Of a stretch of 34,566 nucleotides of DNA, positions 2,738 through 31,171 are shown one piece after another. How positions within the stretch are numbered: the first letter of the stretch is position 1; each line of letters starts with the position of its first letter. The position numbers and the translations under genes were made by a program. The notes below the pieces were generated by a model that saw only the letters and a program-made list of their open reading frames with translations, ran no database searches and was not told where the DNA came from. This stretch comes from a virus, in IMG/VR virus record IMGVR_UViG_3300019487_000022, positions 89,241-123,806 of that record; one strand, 5' to 3'.

Positions 2738-3091
2738 TTACATTCCTTGTTCATCCGTTCCATCAGATTTTTGAATCGGTTTTATATCATCCAATGATCC
2801 AAATAACTCATATATTATCCATGTAATAAATATTGAGCCAAAACCTGATAAAGGCCATAGAATAAAATCTGATTTAGTAGATAATAAGATTATCAAATCC
2901 GCTAATAACGTAGTCCAAAAACTTAAGCAGACCGTGCAATCCAGTACGGGCTCTGCTGGCGGATACCAATATCTTAAAAAACGACGTAAAGGTGAAGCAA
3001 TTATATGAACGGGCCATCTATCCCCTTTTTCAACAATAGCAACTGCCATTCCACAACCAGCTATGATAGATATAATAAACCAAGTCAACAT
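2738..3091 (-). CDS. small membrane protein, DUF1360-like (possible holin)
   Basis: Three hydrophobic segments with a CTVCLSFW (CxxCxSxW) motif. Confidence 0.55.
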   Translation of the reverse strand: MLTWFIISIIAGCGMAVAIVEKGDRWPVHIIASPLRRFLRYWYPPAEPVLDCTVCLSFWTTLLADLIILLSTKSDFILWPLSGFGSIFITWIIYELFGSLDDIKPIQKSDGTDEQGM

Positions 3092-3375
3092 TATTTTTTA
3101 GCCTTTCTTCCTGTAACCATTTCCCATGCAGAAGGCTTAGGTTTTGGAGGATGATCTTTTGCCCATTTAAGTTTTCCATATTTTCTTATTGCTAAATGTT
3201 TTATAGTTATTTCTTCAGAAGGATTAAGATTAAACCATTCCCATTCAGTCAATTCTCTATATAAATCTAAATCTGCGTTTTCCAGTGGTTGACCAGGATT
3301 TTCAACAGCAATTTTAAATTTAGTATATACTTCTGTAGCCCATTTAATCGCTTGATCTTGAAGTTCTTTATCCAT
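3091..3375 (-). CDS. hypothetical protein
   Basis: ORF track; start moved to MDKELQ (GGAG upstream) to avoid overlap with the lysozyme gene. Confidence 0.6.
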   Translation of the reverse strand: MDKELQDQAIKWATEVYTKFKIAVENPGQPLENADLDLYRELTEWEWFNLNPSEEITIKHLAIRKYGKLKWAKDHPPKPKPSAWEMVTGRKAKK

Positions 3376-3430
3376 TTTAGTCGTTTCTCCAGAAGGTTTA
3401 ACCACTAAATATATCGGAATAATAATCACT

Positions 3431-4276
3431 ATGAACTGGTTTAGAAGGTCATTTAGCACATCCTATAATCCGAAATTAGCTGCTAATTGGAAGGATTATA
3501 GAAAAGGATTTTACGGTCCTGCTTTTTTAGGACTGTTAAATGTCTTTTTAAATATGGGGTATAGCCCAGCTGAAGCTCAGCAACTCGCAGAAAAACAATA
3601 TACAGCACAAAATAGTTCAAATGTTACAACACAACCTTCAATAGCTCAACCGACTTCACAACCCATTATTAGTCCTATTGTAACAGAATATTCAACTACT
3701 CAGCCAACTACACAACCTGTAAATCCTACAACTCAGCAAAGTCAAGGATTTAACTACGATGATTTTTACGATCATTTATCTCAAGATAATATCGAAGGTT
3801 ATAGGACAAAGGTTTACGATGATGGAGTTGGAGTAAAAACTATTGGCGTAGGTCATGCAATGGGGAAAAATCCCAATGATAATTGGGCTACAAGAAGTCG
3901 TGAAGTATTTAAAAAGTTATTTCCTGAAGATCCTGATTTATGGGAAAAAGTTTGGAATGGACAAGAATTAACCCCAGAACAAATTGGAAAGCTTACTTTT
4001 GAAGATATTGAACAGCATCTTACTACTGCAAAACGAGTAATGCCAAATTTTGATACTTACCCTTATTATCTACAAAAGGCTCTCCTTGATGGAATTTATC
4101 GTGGAGATATAGGTCCAAAAACCAAAAATCTAATTAACCAAGGTAAATGGCAAGAAGCCGCTGACGAATATATTAACCGTGAAGATTATCGTAATGCAGA
4201 GGAAAATAATATGAGAGGCATAAAAACTCGAATGAATAGTAACAGAGATGCTATGCTTCAATATTATAAAAACTAA
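3431..4276 (+). CDS. GH24 (T4-type) lysozyme with N-terminal hydrophobic segment and Thr/Gln/Pro linker
   Basis: E-x8-D-x5-T catalytic triad in EGYRTKVYDDGVGVKTIGVGH; C-terminal W-x-x-AA-x-E motif; TTQP repeats. Confidence 0.88.
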   Translation: MNWFRRSFSTSYNPKLAANWKDYRKGFYGPAFLGLLNVFLNMGYSPAEAQQLAEKQYTAQNSSNVTTQPSIAQPTSQPIISPIVTEYSTTQPTTQPVNPTTQQSQGFNYDDFYDHLSQDNIEGYRTKVYDDGVGVKTIGVGHAMGKNPNDNWATRSREVFKKLFPEDPDLWEKVWNGQELTPEQIGKLTFEDIEQHLTTAKRVMPNFDTYPYYLQKALLDGIYRGDIGPKTKNLINQGKWQEAADEYINREDYRNAEENNMRGIKTRMNSNRDAMLQYYKN

Positions 4277-5754: not shown

Positions 5755-5799
5755 ATATATGTATGCTACTTTAAATTAAAGCACCATACATATTTAAAT

Positions 5800-6558
5800 T
5801 TATGTATTATCTTTAATGTCTGTATCTTCTTTAGGATTTTCTGCAAAGAAATCCTGAGTTGTTAAAGACATTAACTCATCTGCTGCTTCTTTATTATCTG
5901 TGGAACGAGCTCTAACAGCGGATTTAACTTTACTGACATATGATATACGAGAAGTTCGTAATGTGTCAAATGCATTTTTTGTTCCTTTTTCAGATGGAAC
6001 ATAATTTAATGTGTTATTTACACTAAATCCTAGTTCTTTAGCAGTTTTAAGGGTATTCTCATCGCACCCTATAAATGTGAATGTCCATGCACGACTTGAA
6101 CGAAATTCTTCCAATATTGTTTTAAGTTTACCGAAGTCTCGCCATTCTTGCGATGAAGAATTTTCGCCTCCATCAGTAAAAATAGTGACTACAACATTGA
6201 CACTTTGAGAAGTCAATTGATCCCTAATCTCTTCAGAAAGACGTTGTACTGTTTTTCCAATTGCCTCATATAGTGCAGTACTTCCTGATGGACTATATGT
6301 ATTAGTGGTCAAGTCTTTGATTTGATTAACAGGCTTATCCCATATATCACAAGAAACTGAATCATTAAAAGTAACAAAATATAATTTTTGTTCTATTTCT
6401 GAATCGTTTTCTTGTTCTTTACGAAGTGCGATCAGGTTTTCGTTAAACCCGTCGATAGTTGACTGACGAACCGATGTCATAGAACCGCTTTTATCCAAAA
6501 TCAGTACATGACATATTGTGTGTTTACCTAACACACTCTGAGCTGCATTTGTAGACAT
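5800..6558 (-). CDS. von Willebrand factor A (vWA) domain protein
   Basis: MIDAS LDKSGSM, TALYEAI, FTDGGEN. Confidence 0.9.
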   Translation of the reverse strand: MSTNAAQSVLGKHTICHVLILDKSGSMTSVRQSTIDGFNENLIALRKEQENDSEIEQKLYFVTFNDSVSCDIWDKPVNQIKDLTTNTYSPSGSTALYEAIGKTVQRLSEEIRDQLTSQSVNVVVTIFTDGGENSSSQEWRDFGKLKTILEEFRSSRAWTFTFIGCDENTLKTAKELGFSVNNTLNYVPSEKGTKNAFDTLRTSRISYVSKVKSAVRARSTDNKEAADELMSLTTQDFFAENPKEDTDIKDNT

Positions 6559-6638: not shown

Positions 6639-7640
6639 TTAAAGGATTTTATTGCTTACTCTCTCTAAGTATTCATTCGTCTTTTCAATATCTTTTACTT
6701 TAAAAACCAATATAACTTTATTCCAAAGTACATCTTGTTCTTTCACAAAAACAGAATTGGTAATGTACCTTTTTATTTCTTTTCGATTTAATTCTTTCAT
6801 GCTTTTACAATAAATGCCTTTTCTTCCATAGTACTCGCTATTTTCTGCCTTACCTTTTAAGAAAACATCGTAAAGATCAGGAAATACCCAACGTCCGCAT
6901 TGGTCACGATTAAACATTCTTAATTCGTGAGTCAACCATCCATGAGTAGCTTTGGTTGCCTCTAATTCCTTTTGTAAACGATCTCTGTGTTCTGCTCTCC
7001 AAGGTATATAAACAGGCTCAGGGATTTCAGCAAATGTTAATAAATGCCATTTTCCTTTGTAAGAGTGGCATTGATGCCATTTATCCACTTCTATACGATA
7101 ATATGGTGTTTTATCAACACGATATCGATCATTTTTAGGAACTAATTCTAATAATCCAGTTCCTGGATGAACATATACTATGGCATAAGACTCGGAGATT
7201 GGAAGATAAGGAATGCCTTTAGCAATATCTCCACGTATAGAAAAACGATAGATATAATCCGAAGCAAAATATACTTCGCCTTCTTCGTTTAAGAAGGTTT
7301 TTTCTTCCACATAATCTTTTGCATGTTGCCAAATGTGATATTGTACAGCAGAGCTGGGATTTATGTATTCACACATTTCAGAGAATACTTGGTCCCAAGA
7401 TCTTCCAACTTGGCTACGAAGGTAACGCATTAAGGGATTGAGATTTTCATTCAATTCCTTGCATTCCCAGCTTTTTGTCCAATTACGGATACCTTCACGA
7501 TCTGTCAAAAGATCGTAATTGTCGTTATGAATACAACGGTTTAACTCGTGTTTTAATTCATTGCGACGTTCACGGTATTTAGTTGCGTGTCCTTTGTATC
7601 GTGGACGTTCCACGATAACCTTTGCCATATCTGATCTCAT
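6639..7640 (-). CDS. conserved hypothetical protein (MRSDMAKVIVERPR...NENLNPL.RYL family)
   Basis: Long ORF with an AAAGGA RBS; the N-terminus resembles a widespread uncharacterised family. Confidence 0.75.
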   Translation of the reverse strand: MRSDMAKVIVERPRYKGHATKYRERRNELKHELNRCIHNDNYDLLTDREGIRNWTKSWECKELNENLNPLMRYLRSQVGRSWDQVFSEMCEYINPSSAVQYHIWQHAKDYVEEKTFLNEEGEVYFASDYIYRFSIRGDIAKGIPYLPISESYAIVYVHPGTGLLELVPKNDRYRVDKTPYYRIEVDKWHQCHSYKGKWHLLTFAEIPEPVYIPWRAEHRDRLQKELEATKATHGWLTHELRMFNRDQCGRWVFPDLYDVFLKGKAENSEYYGRKGIYCKSMKELNRKEIKRYITNSVFVKEQDVLWNKVILVFKVKDIEKTNEYLERVSNKIL

Positions 7641-28558: not shown

Positions 28559-29539
28559 TCAAGCAACAGCAATAAATTTAGACAAATTTATAATTTCACA
28601 TCTATAAGGGCTACCAGATGCTGCCATTACAGCGTTTATTTCATCCACATGTAAATGAACAGCTAATCCTTTGCCTGGACCCCCGTTTGCAGACCTTAAT
28701 AACGTGACAACAACAGGATCATAATCTATATAAGATAGAACTGGATTGCCTGAATCAAGGTTTACAACGTCTTCATAAAATGGCATTCTTGGACCAAAAG
28801 GTTGAATCATTGTTGTACTTTTATCATAAGGTCCACGTAAAGCTCTAATATTAGATATCAGAGCTTTTTCTTCTTGATCTGTAACTAGAACAGGAAAACC
28901 AGATGCTAGTTTATCAATATATTTTTCGCAATCAGCAGGAAGAATTTTCGCATGTTTAATGGATGTTGGAACATCATTAGCAAAATATCCTATTCTAAAA
29001 TCTGAAAAGCCAACTCGCCAACTGTTAATTTGAGTAGCGTCAATAACTTCGTCATTTTCAGTAATAAATCTAATATCGCATGGAGGCCAGATGGCATAAT
29101 GTTCTGTGTATAATATATGCCTTGGAGAAATTAATACGCCTCCACCGCCAAATCCATATTTGGAGTTATAAGGACTAATACAAGTTTTATTCAACGAAGC
29201 TGCCCAACAGGATTTATTTCTTTTATATATCTTCTTAGCATGATCCTGAACTTCATATATTAATTTATGAGAAGCATTTTTACCGACGATAAGTTTATCA
29301 ATGATATTCGTTGTATTCTGACGTACCGTTTCTTTAGGTATATTTGGCTGGGGTTTGTTATAGTTGCTAGCTAATATGCTTAAGTCTGCAAGATCTACAT
29401 CTCCGTCACCATCAAAATCTCCTTGTTCCCAAGAAGCCCCTGTTTTTTTTCCGTAATTGGAAGAAAGTTTACCTAAATCAGTGAGATCTACGTCTCCATC
29501 ACGATCAGCGTCACCTGGTACTGGTTTATCTTCGGGCAT
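28559..29539 (-). CDS. dockerin-like (EF-hand repeat) domain fused to a trypsin-like serine protease domain
   Basis: GDADRDGDVDLTDL...W-x-x-GDFDGDGDVDLADL; GVLISPRHILYTEH, D, LDSGNP (GDSG variant). Confidence 0.8.
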   Translation of the reverse strand: MPEDKPVPGDADRDGDVDLTDLGKLSSNYGKKTGASWEQGDFDGDGDVDLADLSILASNYNKPQPNIPKETVRQNTTNIIDKLIVGKNASHKLIYEVQDHAKKIYKRNKSCWAASLNKTCISPYNSKYGFGGGGVLISPRHILYTEHYAIWPPCDIRFITENDEVIDATQINSWRVGFSDFRIGYFANDVPTSIKHAKILPADCEKYIDKLASGFPVLVTDQEEKALISNIRALRGPYDKSTTMIQPFGPRMPFYEDVVNLDSGNPVLSYIDYDPVVVTLLRSANGGPGKGLAVHLHVDEINAVMAASGSPYRCEIINLSKFIAVA

Positions 29540-29543
29540 AAAA

Positions 29544-29575
29544 ACACCTCATAGTATTTGCTTACTATGAGGTGT
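29544..29575 (-). terminator. 13-bp hairpin with U-run whose 3' arm contains the RBS of the protease gene
   Basis: ACACCTCATAGTA/TACTATGAGGTGT followed by TTTTATG. Confidence 0.65.
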
Positions 29576-29594
29576 GGTTTAAATCCTTTTATAT

Positions 29595-29790
29595 AATGTT
29601 AGGGCTAAGACTATCCTTAATATAAATCCATTTCTGAATGTATATTAAAGAAAAAGAGTAAAAGATTGTGTCTTACGGATTGCATTTTGCACCTTGTAGA
29701 ACGATGTATCATGTATCTTGAGGCGCAATCGATTTCCGTATAAAACGATTTGTTTTATTTACACCTTCTTGTCATCTTCGCCCTAACATT
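29595..29790 (-). ncRNA. putative ~196-nt structured RNA with internal 7-nt periodic repeats
   Basis: 11-bp terminal stem AATGTTAGGGC/GCCCTAACATT (+4 bp); long GAAA-capped hairpin with G-U pairs; eight imperfect heptamers at 29666-29724. Confidence 0.65.
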
Positions 29791-29796
29791 TGTTCC

Positions 29797-30030
29797 TTAG
29801 AGAAATTTCTTTTTCTTTTTAGGCTTTTTAAGAATAGCCCAACGGCATTCTATTTTTTGACAGACAGGACATGGCTTATATCTTTTTCTGTCTGTTTCTT
29901 GCATTGAAAGGATTTCTTTTATATCTAACTTAAATGACCAATGAAAATAATCACGTTGATGATCTGGTTTACAACGATTATTCCATTCCCAATAACGGTT
30001 CTTTATCTTACGAACTAAATTATTAAACAT
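29797..30030 (-). CDS. basic hypothetical protein
   Basis: ORF track; CPVC. Confidence 0.5.
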   Translation of the reverse strand: MFNNLVRKIKNRYWEWNNRCKPDHQRDYFHWSFKLDIKEILSMQETDRKRYKPCPVCQKIECRWAILKKPKKKKKFL

Positions 30031-30037
30031 TTATTTA

Positions 30038-30520
30038 TTATCCTGCAATCATATCTATAGTAATATCTTTGGTGTAGTTAAACTTATCAATTTGATTTTG
30101 TATCCTATCAATTTCTCGCTGTATATCTAATTTTGTTTGTTCTACTTCTTGTTTTTTAATACAAGCATCAAAGTTACTAGGTTCCGATTCGTATTTATCT
30201 TTTACTTTTCCGTGCTTTGTATCTACAGTACCCCAAAACATCATATCATCTTTTAATTCTGCTAGCTTAAGTATATCTGGACGGATACTTTGGCTTTCGT
30301 CCCACAATACGAGTTTCAATTGGATTAGATGAGTTTTTAATTCTTCTCTACGTTGAACAAGTGTATTTATGTCTACCCCGTCTCTATTGGCAAATGCTTC
30401 ATTCTCGAAAATTTCTACAGAGTTATATTTCGCAATCTCTGAAGAAACTTTTGTTAGTTCCTGTATAACACGTTTTTTGTAGACCAACGCTTGAGCAATC
30501 GAGAGAGTGGTAACAGCCAT
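30038..30520 (-). CDS. coiled-coil protein resembling the DIP1984 family
   Basis: N-terminal SIAQAL-x-x-K-x-R, helical body, C-terminal IQ-x-x-ID-x-FN; AAAGGA RBS. Confidence 0.6.
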   Translation of the reverse strand: MAVTTLSIAQALVYKKRVIQELTKVSSEIAKYNSVEIFENEAFANRDGVDINTLVQRREELKTHLIQLKLVLWDESQSIRPDILKLAELKDDMMFWGTVDTKHGKVKDKYESEPSNFDACIKKQEVEQTKLDIQREIDRIQNQIDKFNYTKDITIDMIAG

Positions 30521-30607
30521 GTTTAAAATCCTTTTGTTGTTCTTAAAATATAAATTTGAAAGTAGCCGCTGGAGATTCTAATATGTATATTTTCACTTTA
30601 AATAAGA

Positions 30608-30638
30608 AAGACTGCCAACAATTATTGTTGGCAGTCTT
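30608..30638 (-). terminator. 14-bp hairpin terminator after the beta-barrel gene
   Basis: AAGACTGCCAACAA/TTGTTGGCAGTCTT, then TCTTATTT. Confidence 0.8.
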
Positions 30639-30667: not shown

Positions 30668-31171
30668 TTAGAAGCGGAAACCTACGCCCAATCCGTACAC
30701 AAATGCCCCATCATCGAAGCCGTCTTCAAGAGGTACTTCATATTGAACAATACCGTAAATATATGTGGTATCGTTAACGAAATACTTAACGCCTGCTTCA
30801 GGTCCACCGATCCATTCATCCTGTACGCAGTCACCATATTGATAACCAACGCTTACACCAACAAATGGTTGCCAACGTTGTAAATCAAAATGATACTGAG
30901 CAAAACCGACAGTAGCACCATTTACTACTGAATCGCTTCCCTCACTATCAGACCAATTTACAGTCTGACGAAGACCGAATTCCACTTCTTTCGTAGTGAA
31001 ATAGCCAATACCAACAGTAGCGCCAAGCGAATTGCTATCAAAATCGTTATCGCTTGCACCGCTACCATTGAGAGTCAAATCCCAGTTACCCTTTTCTGCC
31101 GCTTGCCCGAAAGCAAAAGACGACATCAAGGCGAGACTCAAAACAATAACAGATACGAACTTACGCAACAT
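30668..31171 (-). CDS. small outer-membrane beta-barrel protein
   Basis: Sec signal peptide, alternating amphipathic strands, C-terminal YGLGVGFRF (BAM signal Phe); AAGGAG RBS. Confidence 0.85.
   Translation of the reverse strand: MLRKFVSVIVLSLALMSSFAFGQAAEKGNWDLTLNGSGASDNDFDSNSLGATVGIGYFTTKEVEFGLRQTVNWSDSEGSDSVVNGATVGFAQYHFDLQRWQPFVGVSVGYQYGDCVQDEWIGGPEAGVKYFVNDTTYIYGIVQYEVPLEDGFDDGAFVYGLGVGFRF

Follow-up and report, generated by a model that had tools for sequence, protein, structure and literature searches.

The window analysed here is a 34,566-nt stretch (positions 89,241 to 123,806) of the 124-kb record IMGVR_UViG_3300019487_000022, which derives from a giant uncultured phage and is only 26% complete by CheckV. 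Within it, on the minus strand, lies a short predicted operon. Its upstream border is marked by the intrinsic terminator of the preceding (OMP-like) gene at 30608-30638, a 14-bp stem followed by a T-rich tail, and two overlapping sigma-70-like promoter matches, each agreeing with the consensus at 9 of 12 positions and resting on the consensus alone, are found at 30575-30618. These precede a gene for a 160-aa protein (30038-30520), a 77-aa ORF (29797-30030) that starts 7 nt after the upstream stop, and a 196-nt closed RNA (29595-29790), so that only 29540-29796 is non-coding. The 77-aa ORF has four Cys, including a CPVC motif, and a Lys-rich C-terminus. We found no homologue other than itself among 5.8 billion proteins and no Pfam, PHROG or PADLOC hit, and its coding status is inferred from our estimate that an open frame of this length is unlikely by chance at 34% GC. 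The unit ends in an intrinsic terminator (29539-29575) with a 13-bp stem at 29575-29544, a 6-nt loop and U5. The 3' arm of this terminator holds the Shine-Dalgarno GAGGUG, and the U run abuts the ATG (29539) of the next gene, which encodes a 326-aa dockerin-like protein.

To examine if the non-coding stretch folds as the first-pass annotation had described, we compared the predicted structures of both strands with those of shuffled sequences. The arms of the closing helix, 29775-29790 (5' strand) and 29595-29610 (3' strand), pair at 15 of 16 positions, as 11 bp, one mismatch and 4 bp, and the helix is present in both the MFE and the centroid structure. The 196 nt fold to -58.2 kcal/mol (z -7.5) on the minus strand, compared to -50.7 kcal/mol (z -4.5) on the plus strand, and the interior without the closing helix still gives z -4.6. 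Inside the helix the MFE structure predicts a small 7-bp hairpin in the 5' domain (29740-29758), followed by a tract of eight 7-nt units (29664-29724). Five of these, at 29696-29666, are in phase and begin with YAA (minus strand: CAAGGUG, CAAAAUG, CAAUCCG, UAAGACA, CAA), whereas three degenerate units (GCCUCAA, GAUACAU, GAUACAU) lie upstream of them, 3 nt out of phase. A run of five YAA at period 7 occurs once in the whole 124-kb record and is expected 0.15 times by chance. The last heptad is followed by a C/U-rich tail (29647-29665; UCUUUUACUCUUUUUCUUU), whose start is predicted to pair back to the purine-rich 5' strand at 29761-29770, and by a hairpin (29614-29651) with arms at 29614-29630 and 29635-29651 and a loop that reads GAAA on the minus strand. 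The observation made in the first-pass annotation is therefore confirmed, with the one correction that the RNA does not lie directly behind the 160-aa gene, as the 77-aa ORF separates them.

The decisive evidence is comparative. The first-pass annotation had proposed that its reading would fail if homologous genes lacked such a downstream RNA, and we found the opposite: nearly every homologue of the 160-aa protein with enough downstream sequence carries a closed RNA with 7-nt periodicity on the strand of the gene. About 35 independent homologues, from huge phages (including LR756511.1 and LR756500.1), Gemmataceae, Armatimonadota and others, carry such an element, and the gene-plus-RNA pair recurs in several bacterial phyla as well as in huge phages. 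It is 170-240 nt long, usually starts 0-35 nt after the stop codon, and has 3-8 exposed YAA(R) heptads. An equivalent C/U-rich tail (CUCUUCC, CUUUUCCCC, CUCAUCAC and others) follows the last heptad in most of the elements listed. In 36 non-redundant homologous loci the 400 nt after the gene have a median heptad-chain score of 8, while the 99th percentile of 1150 control windows is 7 (Mann-Whitney P-value 8e-22). The median MFE z of 33 elements is -4.8, and their NAR triplets are more exposed than the rest of the RNA (unpaired probability 0.56 against 0.33; P-value 6e-7). The sense strand is the more stable one in 23 of 33 elements, although this asymmetry is modest (P-value 0.02). GNRA and UUCG loops lie on the sense strand. 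Compensatory changes occur in 13 of 24 pairs in one analysis and 13 of 32 pairs in another, but these concern relatives other than the closest ones of the window's protein (P0002 and P0003, 50-53% identical, and P0004), and the window's own structure has no direct covariation support. The closing helices of different groups share no sequence, yet they always enclose the tract.

We next tested if the element in the window belongs to this group. It meets the features by which we defined the group: it lies downstream of, and on the same strand as, a gene whose protein has the DIP1984 fold by prediction, its 196 nt are closed by a terminal helix of at least 9 bp, and it has three or more tandem Y-A-A(-R) heptads followed by a C/U-rich tail. 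Furthermore, a profile of the heptad-plus-tail core, built without the window, gave a single nhmmer hit in the 124-kb record, at 29695-29657 (E 0.02). In leave-one-group-out tests of this approach the top hit lay in the element in 13 of 18 cases, with no false top hit. A covariance model of the whole RNA, made from only 8 sequences of one subgroup, found other subgroups weakly and ranked the window's element 12th (4.5 bits, E 3), which does not amount to detection even with filters off. The window's copy is atypical: it lies 247 nt from the gene with an ORF in between, it has its own terminator and an extra GAAA hairpin at a place where most relatives have none (their GNRA- or UUCG-capped hairpins being mostly 5' of the heptads), and part of its heptad tract is paired in the MFE structure.

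The element is in no RNA catalogue that we searched. At gathering thresholds, Rfam 15, including its Y RNA, skipping-rope, 6S and tRNA-like families, matched nothing but tRNAs in the window and in 35 related loci, and at E<=10 only chance-level hits were obtained in the region, the best in the element being to the trpB motif (E 0.14, 28.8 bits against a threshold of 59). A preprint consulted on the skipping-rope RNA does not treat this element. A DNA search of 50,697 phage records with the element returned nothing, as did searches of viral contigs with single proteins, and a second viral scan with a wider protein alignment returned the same five loci. In phage T5 (AY543070) a profile of the protein family found no DIP1984-like gene, and no heptad core lay in the 28-34 kb part of its tRNA region that was scanned.

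The 160-aa protein is predicted to be a four-helix bundle with a small beta cap (AF2 pLDDT 94.4), and the only strong structural match is 3KDQ, the solved member of the DIP1984 family (NF038048; PF20935, DUF6847), which is often annotated as "septicolysin". Alignment with VIA-align gave Z 12.1 and rmsd 2.6 A over 141 of 152 residues, the next chain reaching Z 8.0, and Foldseek gave probability 1.00 and TM 0.67-0.70. The protein itself has no Pfam or NCBIfam hit, whereas its homologues give full-length hits to NF038048 at E 1e-6 to 4e-11 but at 19-43 bits, below the cutoff of 70. It is therefore a distant relative rather than a curated member of the family, with which it shares fold and length, and its N-terminal motif is LAKALKLKNR-like rather than LAEAL..R.D. 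The protein's family has 2023 cluster representatives at E<=1e-3, and its conserved polar residues are, in the numbering of the window's protein, K15, N33, K69, E88, K90, T101, Q141 and N148. The papers found on DIP1984, DUF6847, 3KDQ or septicolysin give the family no tested function and do not link it to an RNA. We found that canonical DIP1984 genes on Mycobacterium and Streptomyces plasmids are also followed by a conserved closed RNA, whose unpaired tract has YAC, not YAA, every 7 nt, so the triplet differs between the two protein subfamilies compared. These actinobacterial RNAs carry a T-arm-like hairpin, GGGGUUCGACUCCCC. Canonical loci of Acinetobacter, Picosynechococcus and Enterococcus show closed folds in 270-320-nt unannotated gaps, but without clear 7-nt periodicity.

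To examine if other genes accompany the pair, we compared the neighbourhoods of the homologous loci (numbered L003 to L062 below). The RNA is the only conserved neighbour of the gene; the flanking genes encode SNF2 helicase, glycosyltransferases, MgtE, subtilase, a methyltransferase, a DHH protein and TnpB, and no PADLOC defence model gave a hit. Same-strand tRNA genes lie within a few kb in the window and in L003, L004, L005, L016, L017, L018, L025, L027, L049, L056 and L062, and the phage copies sit inside tRNA clusters, whereas the Gemmataceae and Armatimonadota loci have no tRNA or RtcB nearby. In L049 the order is gene, RNA, tRNA-Phe and then RtcB pieces. This is the only locus with RtcB adjacent, the gene being far away in the Gemmata and Fimbriimonadaceae genomes. 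L005 and L009 hold tRNA-like hairpins between the gene and the RNA.

Taken together, these results indicate that the element is a real non-coding RNA of a conserved, uncatalogued class that is genetically tied to proteins of the DIP1984 fold. We hold this coupling of a conserved RNA to the gene with high confidence, and the explanation as a whole with moderate confidence. What the analysis demonstrates is the quality and strandedness of the computed fold, the recurrence of the periodic tract behind homologous genes, the membership of the window's element by sequence profile and the synteny of gene and RNA; all structures remain predictions, and transcription, processing and protein binding are inferred. 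In this view, the RNA would be transcribed as the 3' end of the operon, from a promoter near 30600 to the terminator at 29575-29544, and its long terminal helix would enclose one or more capped hairpins and the heptads, each showing an exposed Y-A-A(-R) triplet, with the C/U-rich strand pairing back towards the 5' end. Several copies of the protein would bind the tract, one per heptad, to give a ribonucleoprotein particle. Such binding, which the first-pass annotation had already proposed for an oligomer of the helical protein, appears somewhat more likely than not, but it rests on synteny, on the exposure of the triplets and on analogy with HutP and TRAP, and the variation from 3 to 8 heptads does not fit a closed ring of fixed size. 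The interpretation in that annotation is thus supported in part: the gene-RNA module is well supported and the DIP1984-like assignment holds, while binding of the repeats remains an inference. That the particle acts on tRNA or RNA-damage biology in phages, suggested by its position in tRNA gene clusters, is a weaker inference that we consider unlikely on present evidence.

Two alternatives survive to a similar, low degree. First, the RNA may be a cis-acting 3'-UTR element that stabilizes or terminates the mRNA of the operon, or a site where the protein feeds back on its own message, with no free particle having a job of its own. The RNA always lies in the same predicted transcript, directly after the stop codon in most loci, and in A+T-rich relatives the closing helix plus a U run doubles as the terminator. 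However, a stabilizer or terminator does not need 200 nt, capped hairpins and a conserved periodic tract, and in the window a separate, stronger terminator follows the element and an ORF separates it from the gene; autoregulation would still require binding of the heptads, so that this reading overlaps with the main one. Second, the RNA may work with another partner, such as tRNA, the ribosome, an anticodon nuclease or a repair enzyme such as RtcB, the heptads (K-Y-A-A-R, 7 nt long like an anticodon loop, a resemblance that is only our reading) acting as decoys or docking sites and the protein being merely co-expressed or a chaperone. The tRNA clusters, the order in L049, the tRNA-like hairpins of L005 and L009 and the T-arm-like hairpin of the canonical actinobacterial RNAs would fit this, but the bacterial loci without tRNA neighbours do not, and the only invariant companion is the protein gene. 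A 5' leader or riboswitch of the 326-aa gene, with the terminator that hides the Shine-Dalgarno as its expression platform, is very unlikely: in relatives the downstream genes are unrelated or on the other strand while the upstream DIP1984-like gene is constant, no alternative pairing with the terminator beyond 6 nt was seen by eye, and no relatives of the 326-aa gene with the same leader but without a DIP1984-like gene were found. A DNA-level element (a miniature inverted-repeat transposon, iterons of a replication origin or protein-binding DNA repeats), suggested by the 16-bp terminal inverted repeats and short tandem repeats, is least likely, because the element is single-copy in the incomplete record, its terminal 9-mer is not enriched, no target-site duplication is visible, the GNRA and UUCG loops, the sense-strand terminator and the better sense-strand folding point to RNA, and its position is fixed relative to one gene in unrelated genomes.

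A broader possibility, which the data do not rule out but which we regard as doubtful, is that the whole DIP1984 superfamily, with about 2000 sequence clusters in phages and bacteria, is one half of a widespread two-part ribonucleoprotein. Each subfamily would read its own triplet (YAA here, YAC in canonical actinobacterial members) every seven bases on a dedicated closed RNA, so that protein and RNA specificity co-evolve, and in phages the particle would be made together with the tRNAs and act on tRNA or RNA damage, for instance as a decoy for anticodon-directed nucleases or as a platform for repair. A conserved 200-nt RNA that always travels with one protein family of solved structure but unknown function would define a new bacterial and phage ribonucleoprotein and give a first functional handle on DIP1984/DUF6847 proteins, including the "septicolysin" genes found on 340 Acinetobacter plasmid records. 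It would also add a second natural example of triplet reading at 7-nt spacing, after HutP, and an unexplained component to the tRNA regions of huge phages. The idea is amenable to direct testing, as the protein is small, its fold prediction is confident and cultured carriers exist, such as the genera Gemmata and Fimbriimonas and the species Chthonomonas calidirosea for the YAA type, and, for the canonical type, Deinococcus radiodurans and the mycobacterial, Streptomyces and Acinetobacter plasmids, among them 8.7-kb plasmids of Acinetobacter baumannii.

Among described systems, HutP bound to the hut terminator RNA of Bacillus subtilis is the best model for how the heptads could be read: a three-base motif recurs with four spacer bases (UAGNNNNUAGNNNNUAG), giving a period of 7 nt, and is read on single-stranded RNA by an oligomeric protein (PMC2425495). 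HutP, however, is a ligand-activated hexameric antiterminator acting on a 5' leader with 3+3 repeats, whereas here the protein is an unrelated helical bundle without a HutP family hit, the triplet is YAA, and 3-8 repeats lie inside a closed RNA 3' of the gene; only the triplet spacing is shared. TRAP on the Bacillus trp leader likewise reads many regularly spaced (G/U)AG triplets on single-stranded RNA, but the spacing is 2-3 nt rather than 4, the ring is an 11-mer beta-sandwich, and its role is regulatory in a 5' leader with no dedicated RNA gene. In type III toxin-antitoxin pairs such as ToxIN a protein gene is tied to an adjacent repeat-containing RNA that binds the protein, but the ToxIN repeats are about 36 nt, lie upstream of the toxin gene and are cut by the toxin, an endoribonuclease, whereas the 7-nt units here lie downstream inside a closed fold and the protein has no nuclease fold. 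Ro60 (Rsr) is a large ring protein and Y RNAs have no heptad tract, nor did any Y RNA family of Rfam match. Nevertheless, Y RNAs are small non-coding RNAs encoded next to their protein partner in bacteria and phages, and at least one Y RNA per species has a tRNA-like domain (PMC4201824). The two ends of Y RNAs pair into a long stem, and the locus is linked to RtcB in some bacteria; here, T-arm-like hairpins occur in canonical DIP1984 RNAs, and one locus has RtcB next door.

The window is the last 34.6 kb of a 123.8-kb IMG/VR virus record that CheckV rates as 26% complete, so it is a fragment of a very large phage. All 16 tRNA genes of the record lie in this window on the minus strand, and the genes around the RNA element are on the minus strand as well. 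In order, these are an OMP-like gene (30668-31171, weak OprF/OMP_b-brl hits to outer-membrane beta-barrel proteins) ended by a strong terminator at 30638-30608, the 160-aa gene (30520-30038), a 77-aa ORF (30030-29797), a 257-nt non-coding stretch, and a 326-aa gene (29539-28559) with a dockerin-like calcium-binding N-terminus and an unknown C-terminal domain.

We first examined whether the closed RNA of about 196 nt with heptad periodicity, which the first-pass annotation had described downstream of a DIP1984-like gene, is present in the sequence, and found that everything described there is. The arms 29595-29610 and 29775-29790 form an 11-bp helix, one mismatch and 4 more pairs, and the enclosed 196 nt are predicted to fold to -58.2 kcal/mol on the minus strand (z -7.5) compared to -50.7 (z -4.5) on the plus strand; the interior alone still gives z -4.6. 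The hairpin 29651-29614 carries a GAAA loop on the minus strand. On the same strand the heptads read CAAGGUG CAAAAUG CAAUCCG UAAGACA CAA, with three looser units upstream, 3 nt out of phase, and are followed by the pyrimidine run UCUUUUACUCUUUUUCUUU. A run of five YAA at period 7 is unique in the 124-kb record and is expected 0.15 times by chance. A 13-bp terminator with U5 follows at 29575-29544. This terminator also hides the Shine-Dalgarno GAGGUG of the 326-aa dockerin-like gene in its 3' arm (29539-29575, minus strand), and the start codon follows the U5 run directly; translation of that gene would need the 13-bp hairpin to open. One correction is needed: the RNA is separated from the 160-aa gene by an open frame of 77 codons. 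This ORFan (29797-30030, minus strand) contains CPVC and a KKPKKKKK tail, and a basic small ORF also sits between gene and RNA in a second, unrelated phage, LR756511.1 (locus L062, 4478-4600), where it is a Lys-rich ORF of about 28 aa. The two may be coincidental or may be small RNA-binding partners.

To investigate the identity of the 160-aa protein, we searched it against Pfam, NCBIfam and PHROG and found no hit of its own. Its homologues, however, give full-length hits to NF038048 (DIP1984 family), at E 1e-6 to 4e-11 but below the cutoff, and to PF20935. An AlphaFold2 model built with a 21-sequence alignment (pLDDT 94) is a four-helix bundle capped by a small sheet, and its only strong structural match is 3KDQ, the unknown-function protein of Corynebacterium diphtheriae (Z 12.1, rmsd 2.6 A, 141 residues; the next chain is at Z 8.0). 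Foldseek gives this match a probability of 1.00. A profile search finds 2023 cluster representatives at E<=1e-3, and the ESM Atlas neighbours are mostly viral clusters, some of which carry DUF6847. The label "DIP1984-like" is therefore right as a statement about the predicted fold, but the protein is not a curated family member.

To test if homologous genes are followed by a similar RNA, whose absence had been named beforehand as the outcome that would count against the module, we collected relatives from three sources: JGI metagenomes and IMG/VR (loci L002-L031); GTDB genomes (loci L032-L049), namely Fimbriiglobus, Gemmata, Frigoriglobus and other Planctomycetota, Chthonomonas and Fimbriimonas, and MAGs labelled Flavobacteriales and Bifidobacterium; and the GenBank huge phages LR756511.1 (595 kb) and LR756500.1 (462 kb). 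The proteins are 25-35% identical to that of the window. In almost every locus with enough sequence, the stretch after the stop codon has no plausible ORF and is predicted to fold into an element of 170-240 nt closed by a long helix, which starts 0-35 nt after the stop in most loci and up to 182 nt after it in some. Inside lies a row of 3-8 heptads with the consensus Y-K-Y-A-A-R-M, followed by a C/U-rich tail such as CUUUUCCCCUCC, CUCUUCC or CUCAUCAC.

The heptad-chain score of the 400 nt after the gene has a median of 8 in 36 non-redundant loci, whereas the 99th percentile of 1150 control windows from the same loci is 7 (Mann-Whitney p 8e-22). Although the loci are related, so that this p-value overstates independence, the groups span GC 23-71% and share no closing-helix sequence. 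The median MFE z is -4.8, the triplets are more exposed than the rest of the RNA (0.56 against 0.33, p 6e-7), and the sense strand folds better in 23 of 33 elements (p 0.02). Furthermore, within two subgroups, 13 of 24 and 13 of 32 predicted pairs show compensatory changes; one example is a GNRA hairpin that reads CUGC-GAAA-GCAG, CUCC-GAAA-GGAG or CCC-GCAA-GGG. GNRA and UUCG loops, and U runs after the closing helix, lie on the gene's strand.

We next tested if the window's element belongs to this class. A sequence profile of the heptad-plus-tail core, built from the other loci only and searched against the whole 124-kb record on both strands, gives a single hit, at window 29695-29657 (E 0.02). 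When the same kind of profile was trained with each subgroup left out in turn, its top hit fell inside the left-out element in 13 of 18 tests, there was no hit in 5, and there was never a false top hit. The only secondary hit of the core profile was in L003, a 462-kb phage contig, where a perfect tandem array (CAACATT) x 7.4 at 5778-5829 lies about 160 nt upstream of the DIP1984-like gene; this is a second CAA-every-7-nt tract, on the same strand, in front of the gene. The covariance model of subgroup A does not reach the window. We therefore consider the element a divergent member: its closing helix, purine-rich 5' strand, heptads and tail match the class, while its GAAA hairpin between tail and closing helix, its separate terminator and the intervening ORF are its own.

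To examine what else travels with the element, we compared every ORF in the loci all against all, and found only the DIP1984-like gene itself as a conserved component. Pfam names for the flanking genes are unrelated to one another, and no PADLOC model matches. In one A+T-rich contig (L011, 777-1964) a TnpB (OrfB_IS605 / Cas12f-like) gene lies directly upstream of the DIP1984-like gene. Phage-type loci do share a context, namely same-strand tRNA genes within a few kb, as seen in the window and in L003, L004, L005, L016, L017, L018, L025, L027, L049, L056 and L062. In the window the module lies 2.0 and 2.2 kb from tRNA-Thr and tRNA-Tyr; about 22% of the record is within 3 kb of a tRNA. In L049 (1808-4035 of a 78-kb contig labelled as a Bifidobacterium MAG) the order is DIP1984-like gene, heptad RNA (2327-2541), tRNA-Phe (2546-2620) and then three pieces of an RtcB RNA ligase gene (2782-4035), with three more tRNAs upstream and a second RtcB 15 kb away. 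RtcB adjacency holds in this one locus only among those collected, and RtcB is far from the module in the Gemmata and Fimbriimonadaceae genomes. In addition, tRNA-like hairpins lie between the gene and the heptad RNA in L009 (610-725), which has an acceptor-like stem plus the T-arm GUAGGUUCGACUCCUAC, and in L005 (6490-6560), where the copy ends in CCACCA; ARAGORN does not call either as a tRNA.

To see if canonical DIP1984 genes show a similar arrangement, we examined members above the NCBIfam cutoff and found that they are followed by 260-440 nt without annotation. On plasmids of Mycobacterium branderi, Mycolicibacterium rufum, Streptomyces and Streptantibioticus (L070-L072 and L074 among the actinobacterial plasmid loci) this stretch is about 75% identical in its aligned columns and is predicted to fold into a conserved closed RNA of about 210 nt with 46 consensus pairs, 7 of them with compensatory changes. 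It has a T-arm-like hairpin (GGGGUUCGACUCCCC) and a largely unpaired tract in which (Y)AC recurs every 7 nt, and Rfam has no family for it. The gene-RNA partnership therefore appears to cover the wider superfamily, with a different triplet in a different protein subfamily. In the Acinetobacter, Picosynechococcus and Enterococcus copies we saw closed folds but no clear periodicity; the Acinetobacter copy (L064, A. baumannii pHKU3a 6656-6977) is predicted to fold into a closed structure of about 205 nt.

No paper found links DIP1984, DUF6847, septicolysin or 3KDQ to an RNA, and Rfam 15 has no matching family. A comparison with the skipping-rope family finds no support here, and phage T5 itself has no match to our protein profile.

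Taken together, these results show that a conserved, structured and strand-specific element, as judged from predicted structures, is fixed to one gene family and carries exposed periodic triplets. By contrast, transcription and binding are inferred: in this view, the RNA is made as the 3' end of the operon's transcript and protected by its closing helix, and several protomers of the protein bind the heptads, one per 7 nt. HutP reads UAG-N4 repeats in this way (PMC2425495). The variable heptad number (3-8) argues for side-by-side binding along the tract rather than a ring of fixed size. The first-pass interpretation of a protein-RNA module, in which an oligomer of the upstream helical protein binds the repeats, is thus only partly supported, since the coupling of gene and RNA rests on the comparison of loci whereas the binding is an inference. 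A role near tRNA or RNA repair is a weak inference from context. Among the alternatives, the element might be a purely cis-acting 3' UTR, or an RNA that serves another partner. A leader of the next gene is unlikely, since downstream genes differ among relatives, and a DNA-level element is unlikely, since the element is single-copy in the record and has strand-specific RNA features.

The 16 nt just before the terminator (29575-29590, minus strand AAAAGGAUUUAAACCA) nearly repeat the ribosome-binding region of the 160-aa gene (30520-30535, AAAAGGAUUUUAAACA-UG). No start codon follows the first copy, which may be a relic of a gene start.
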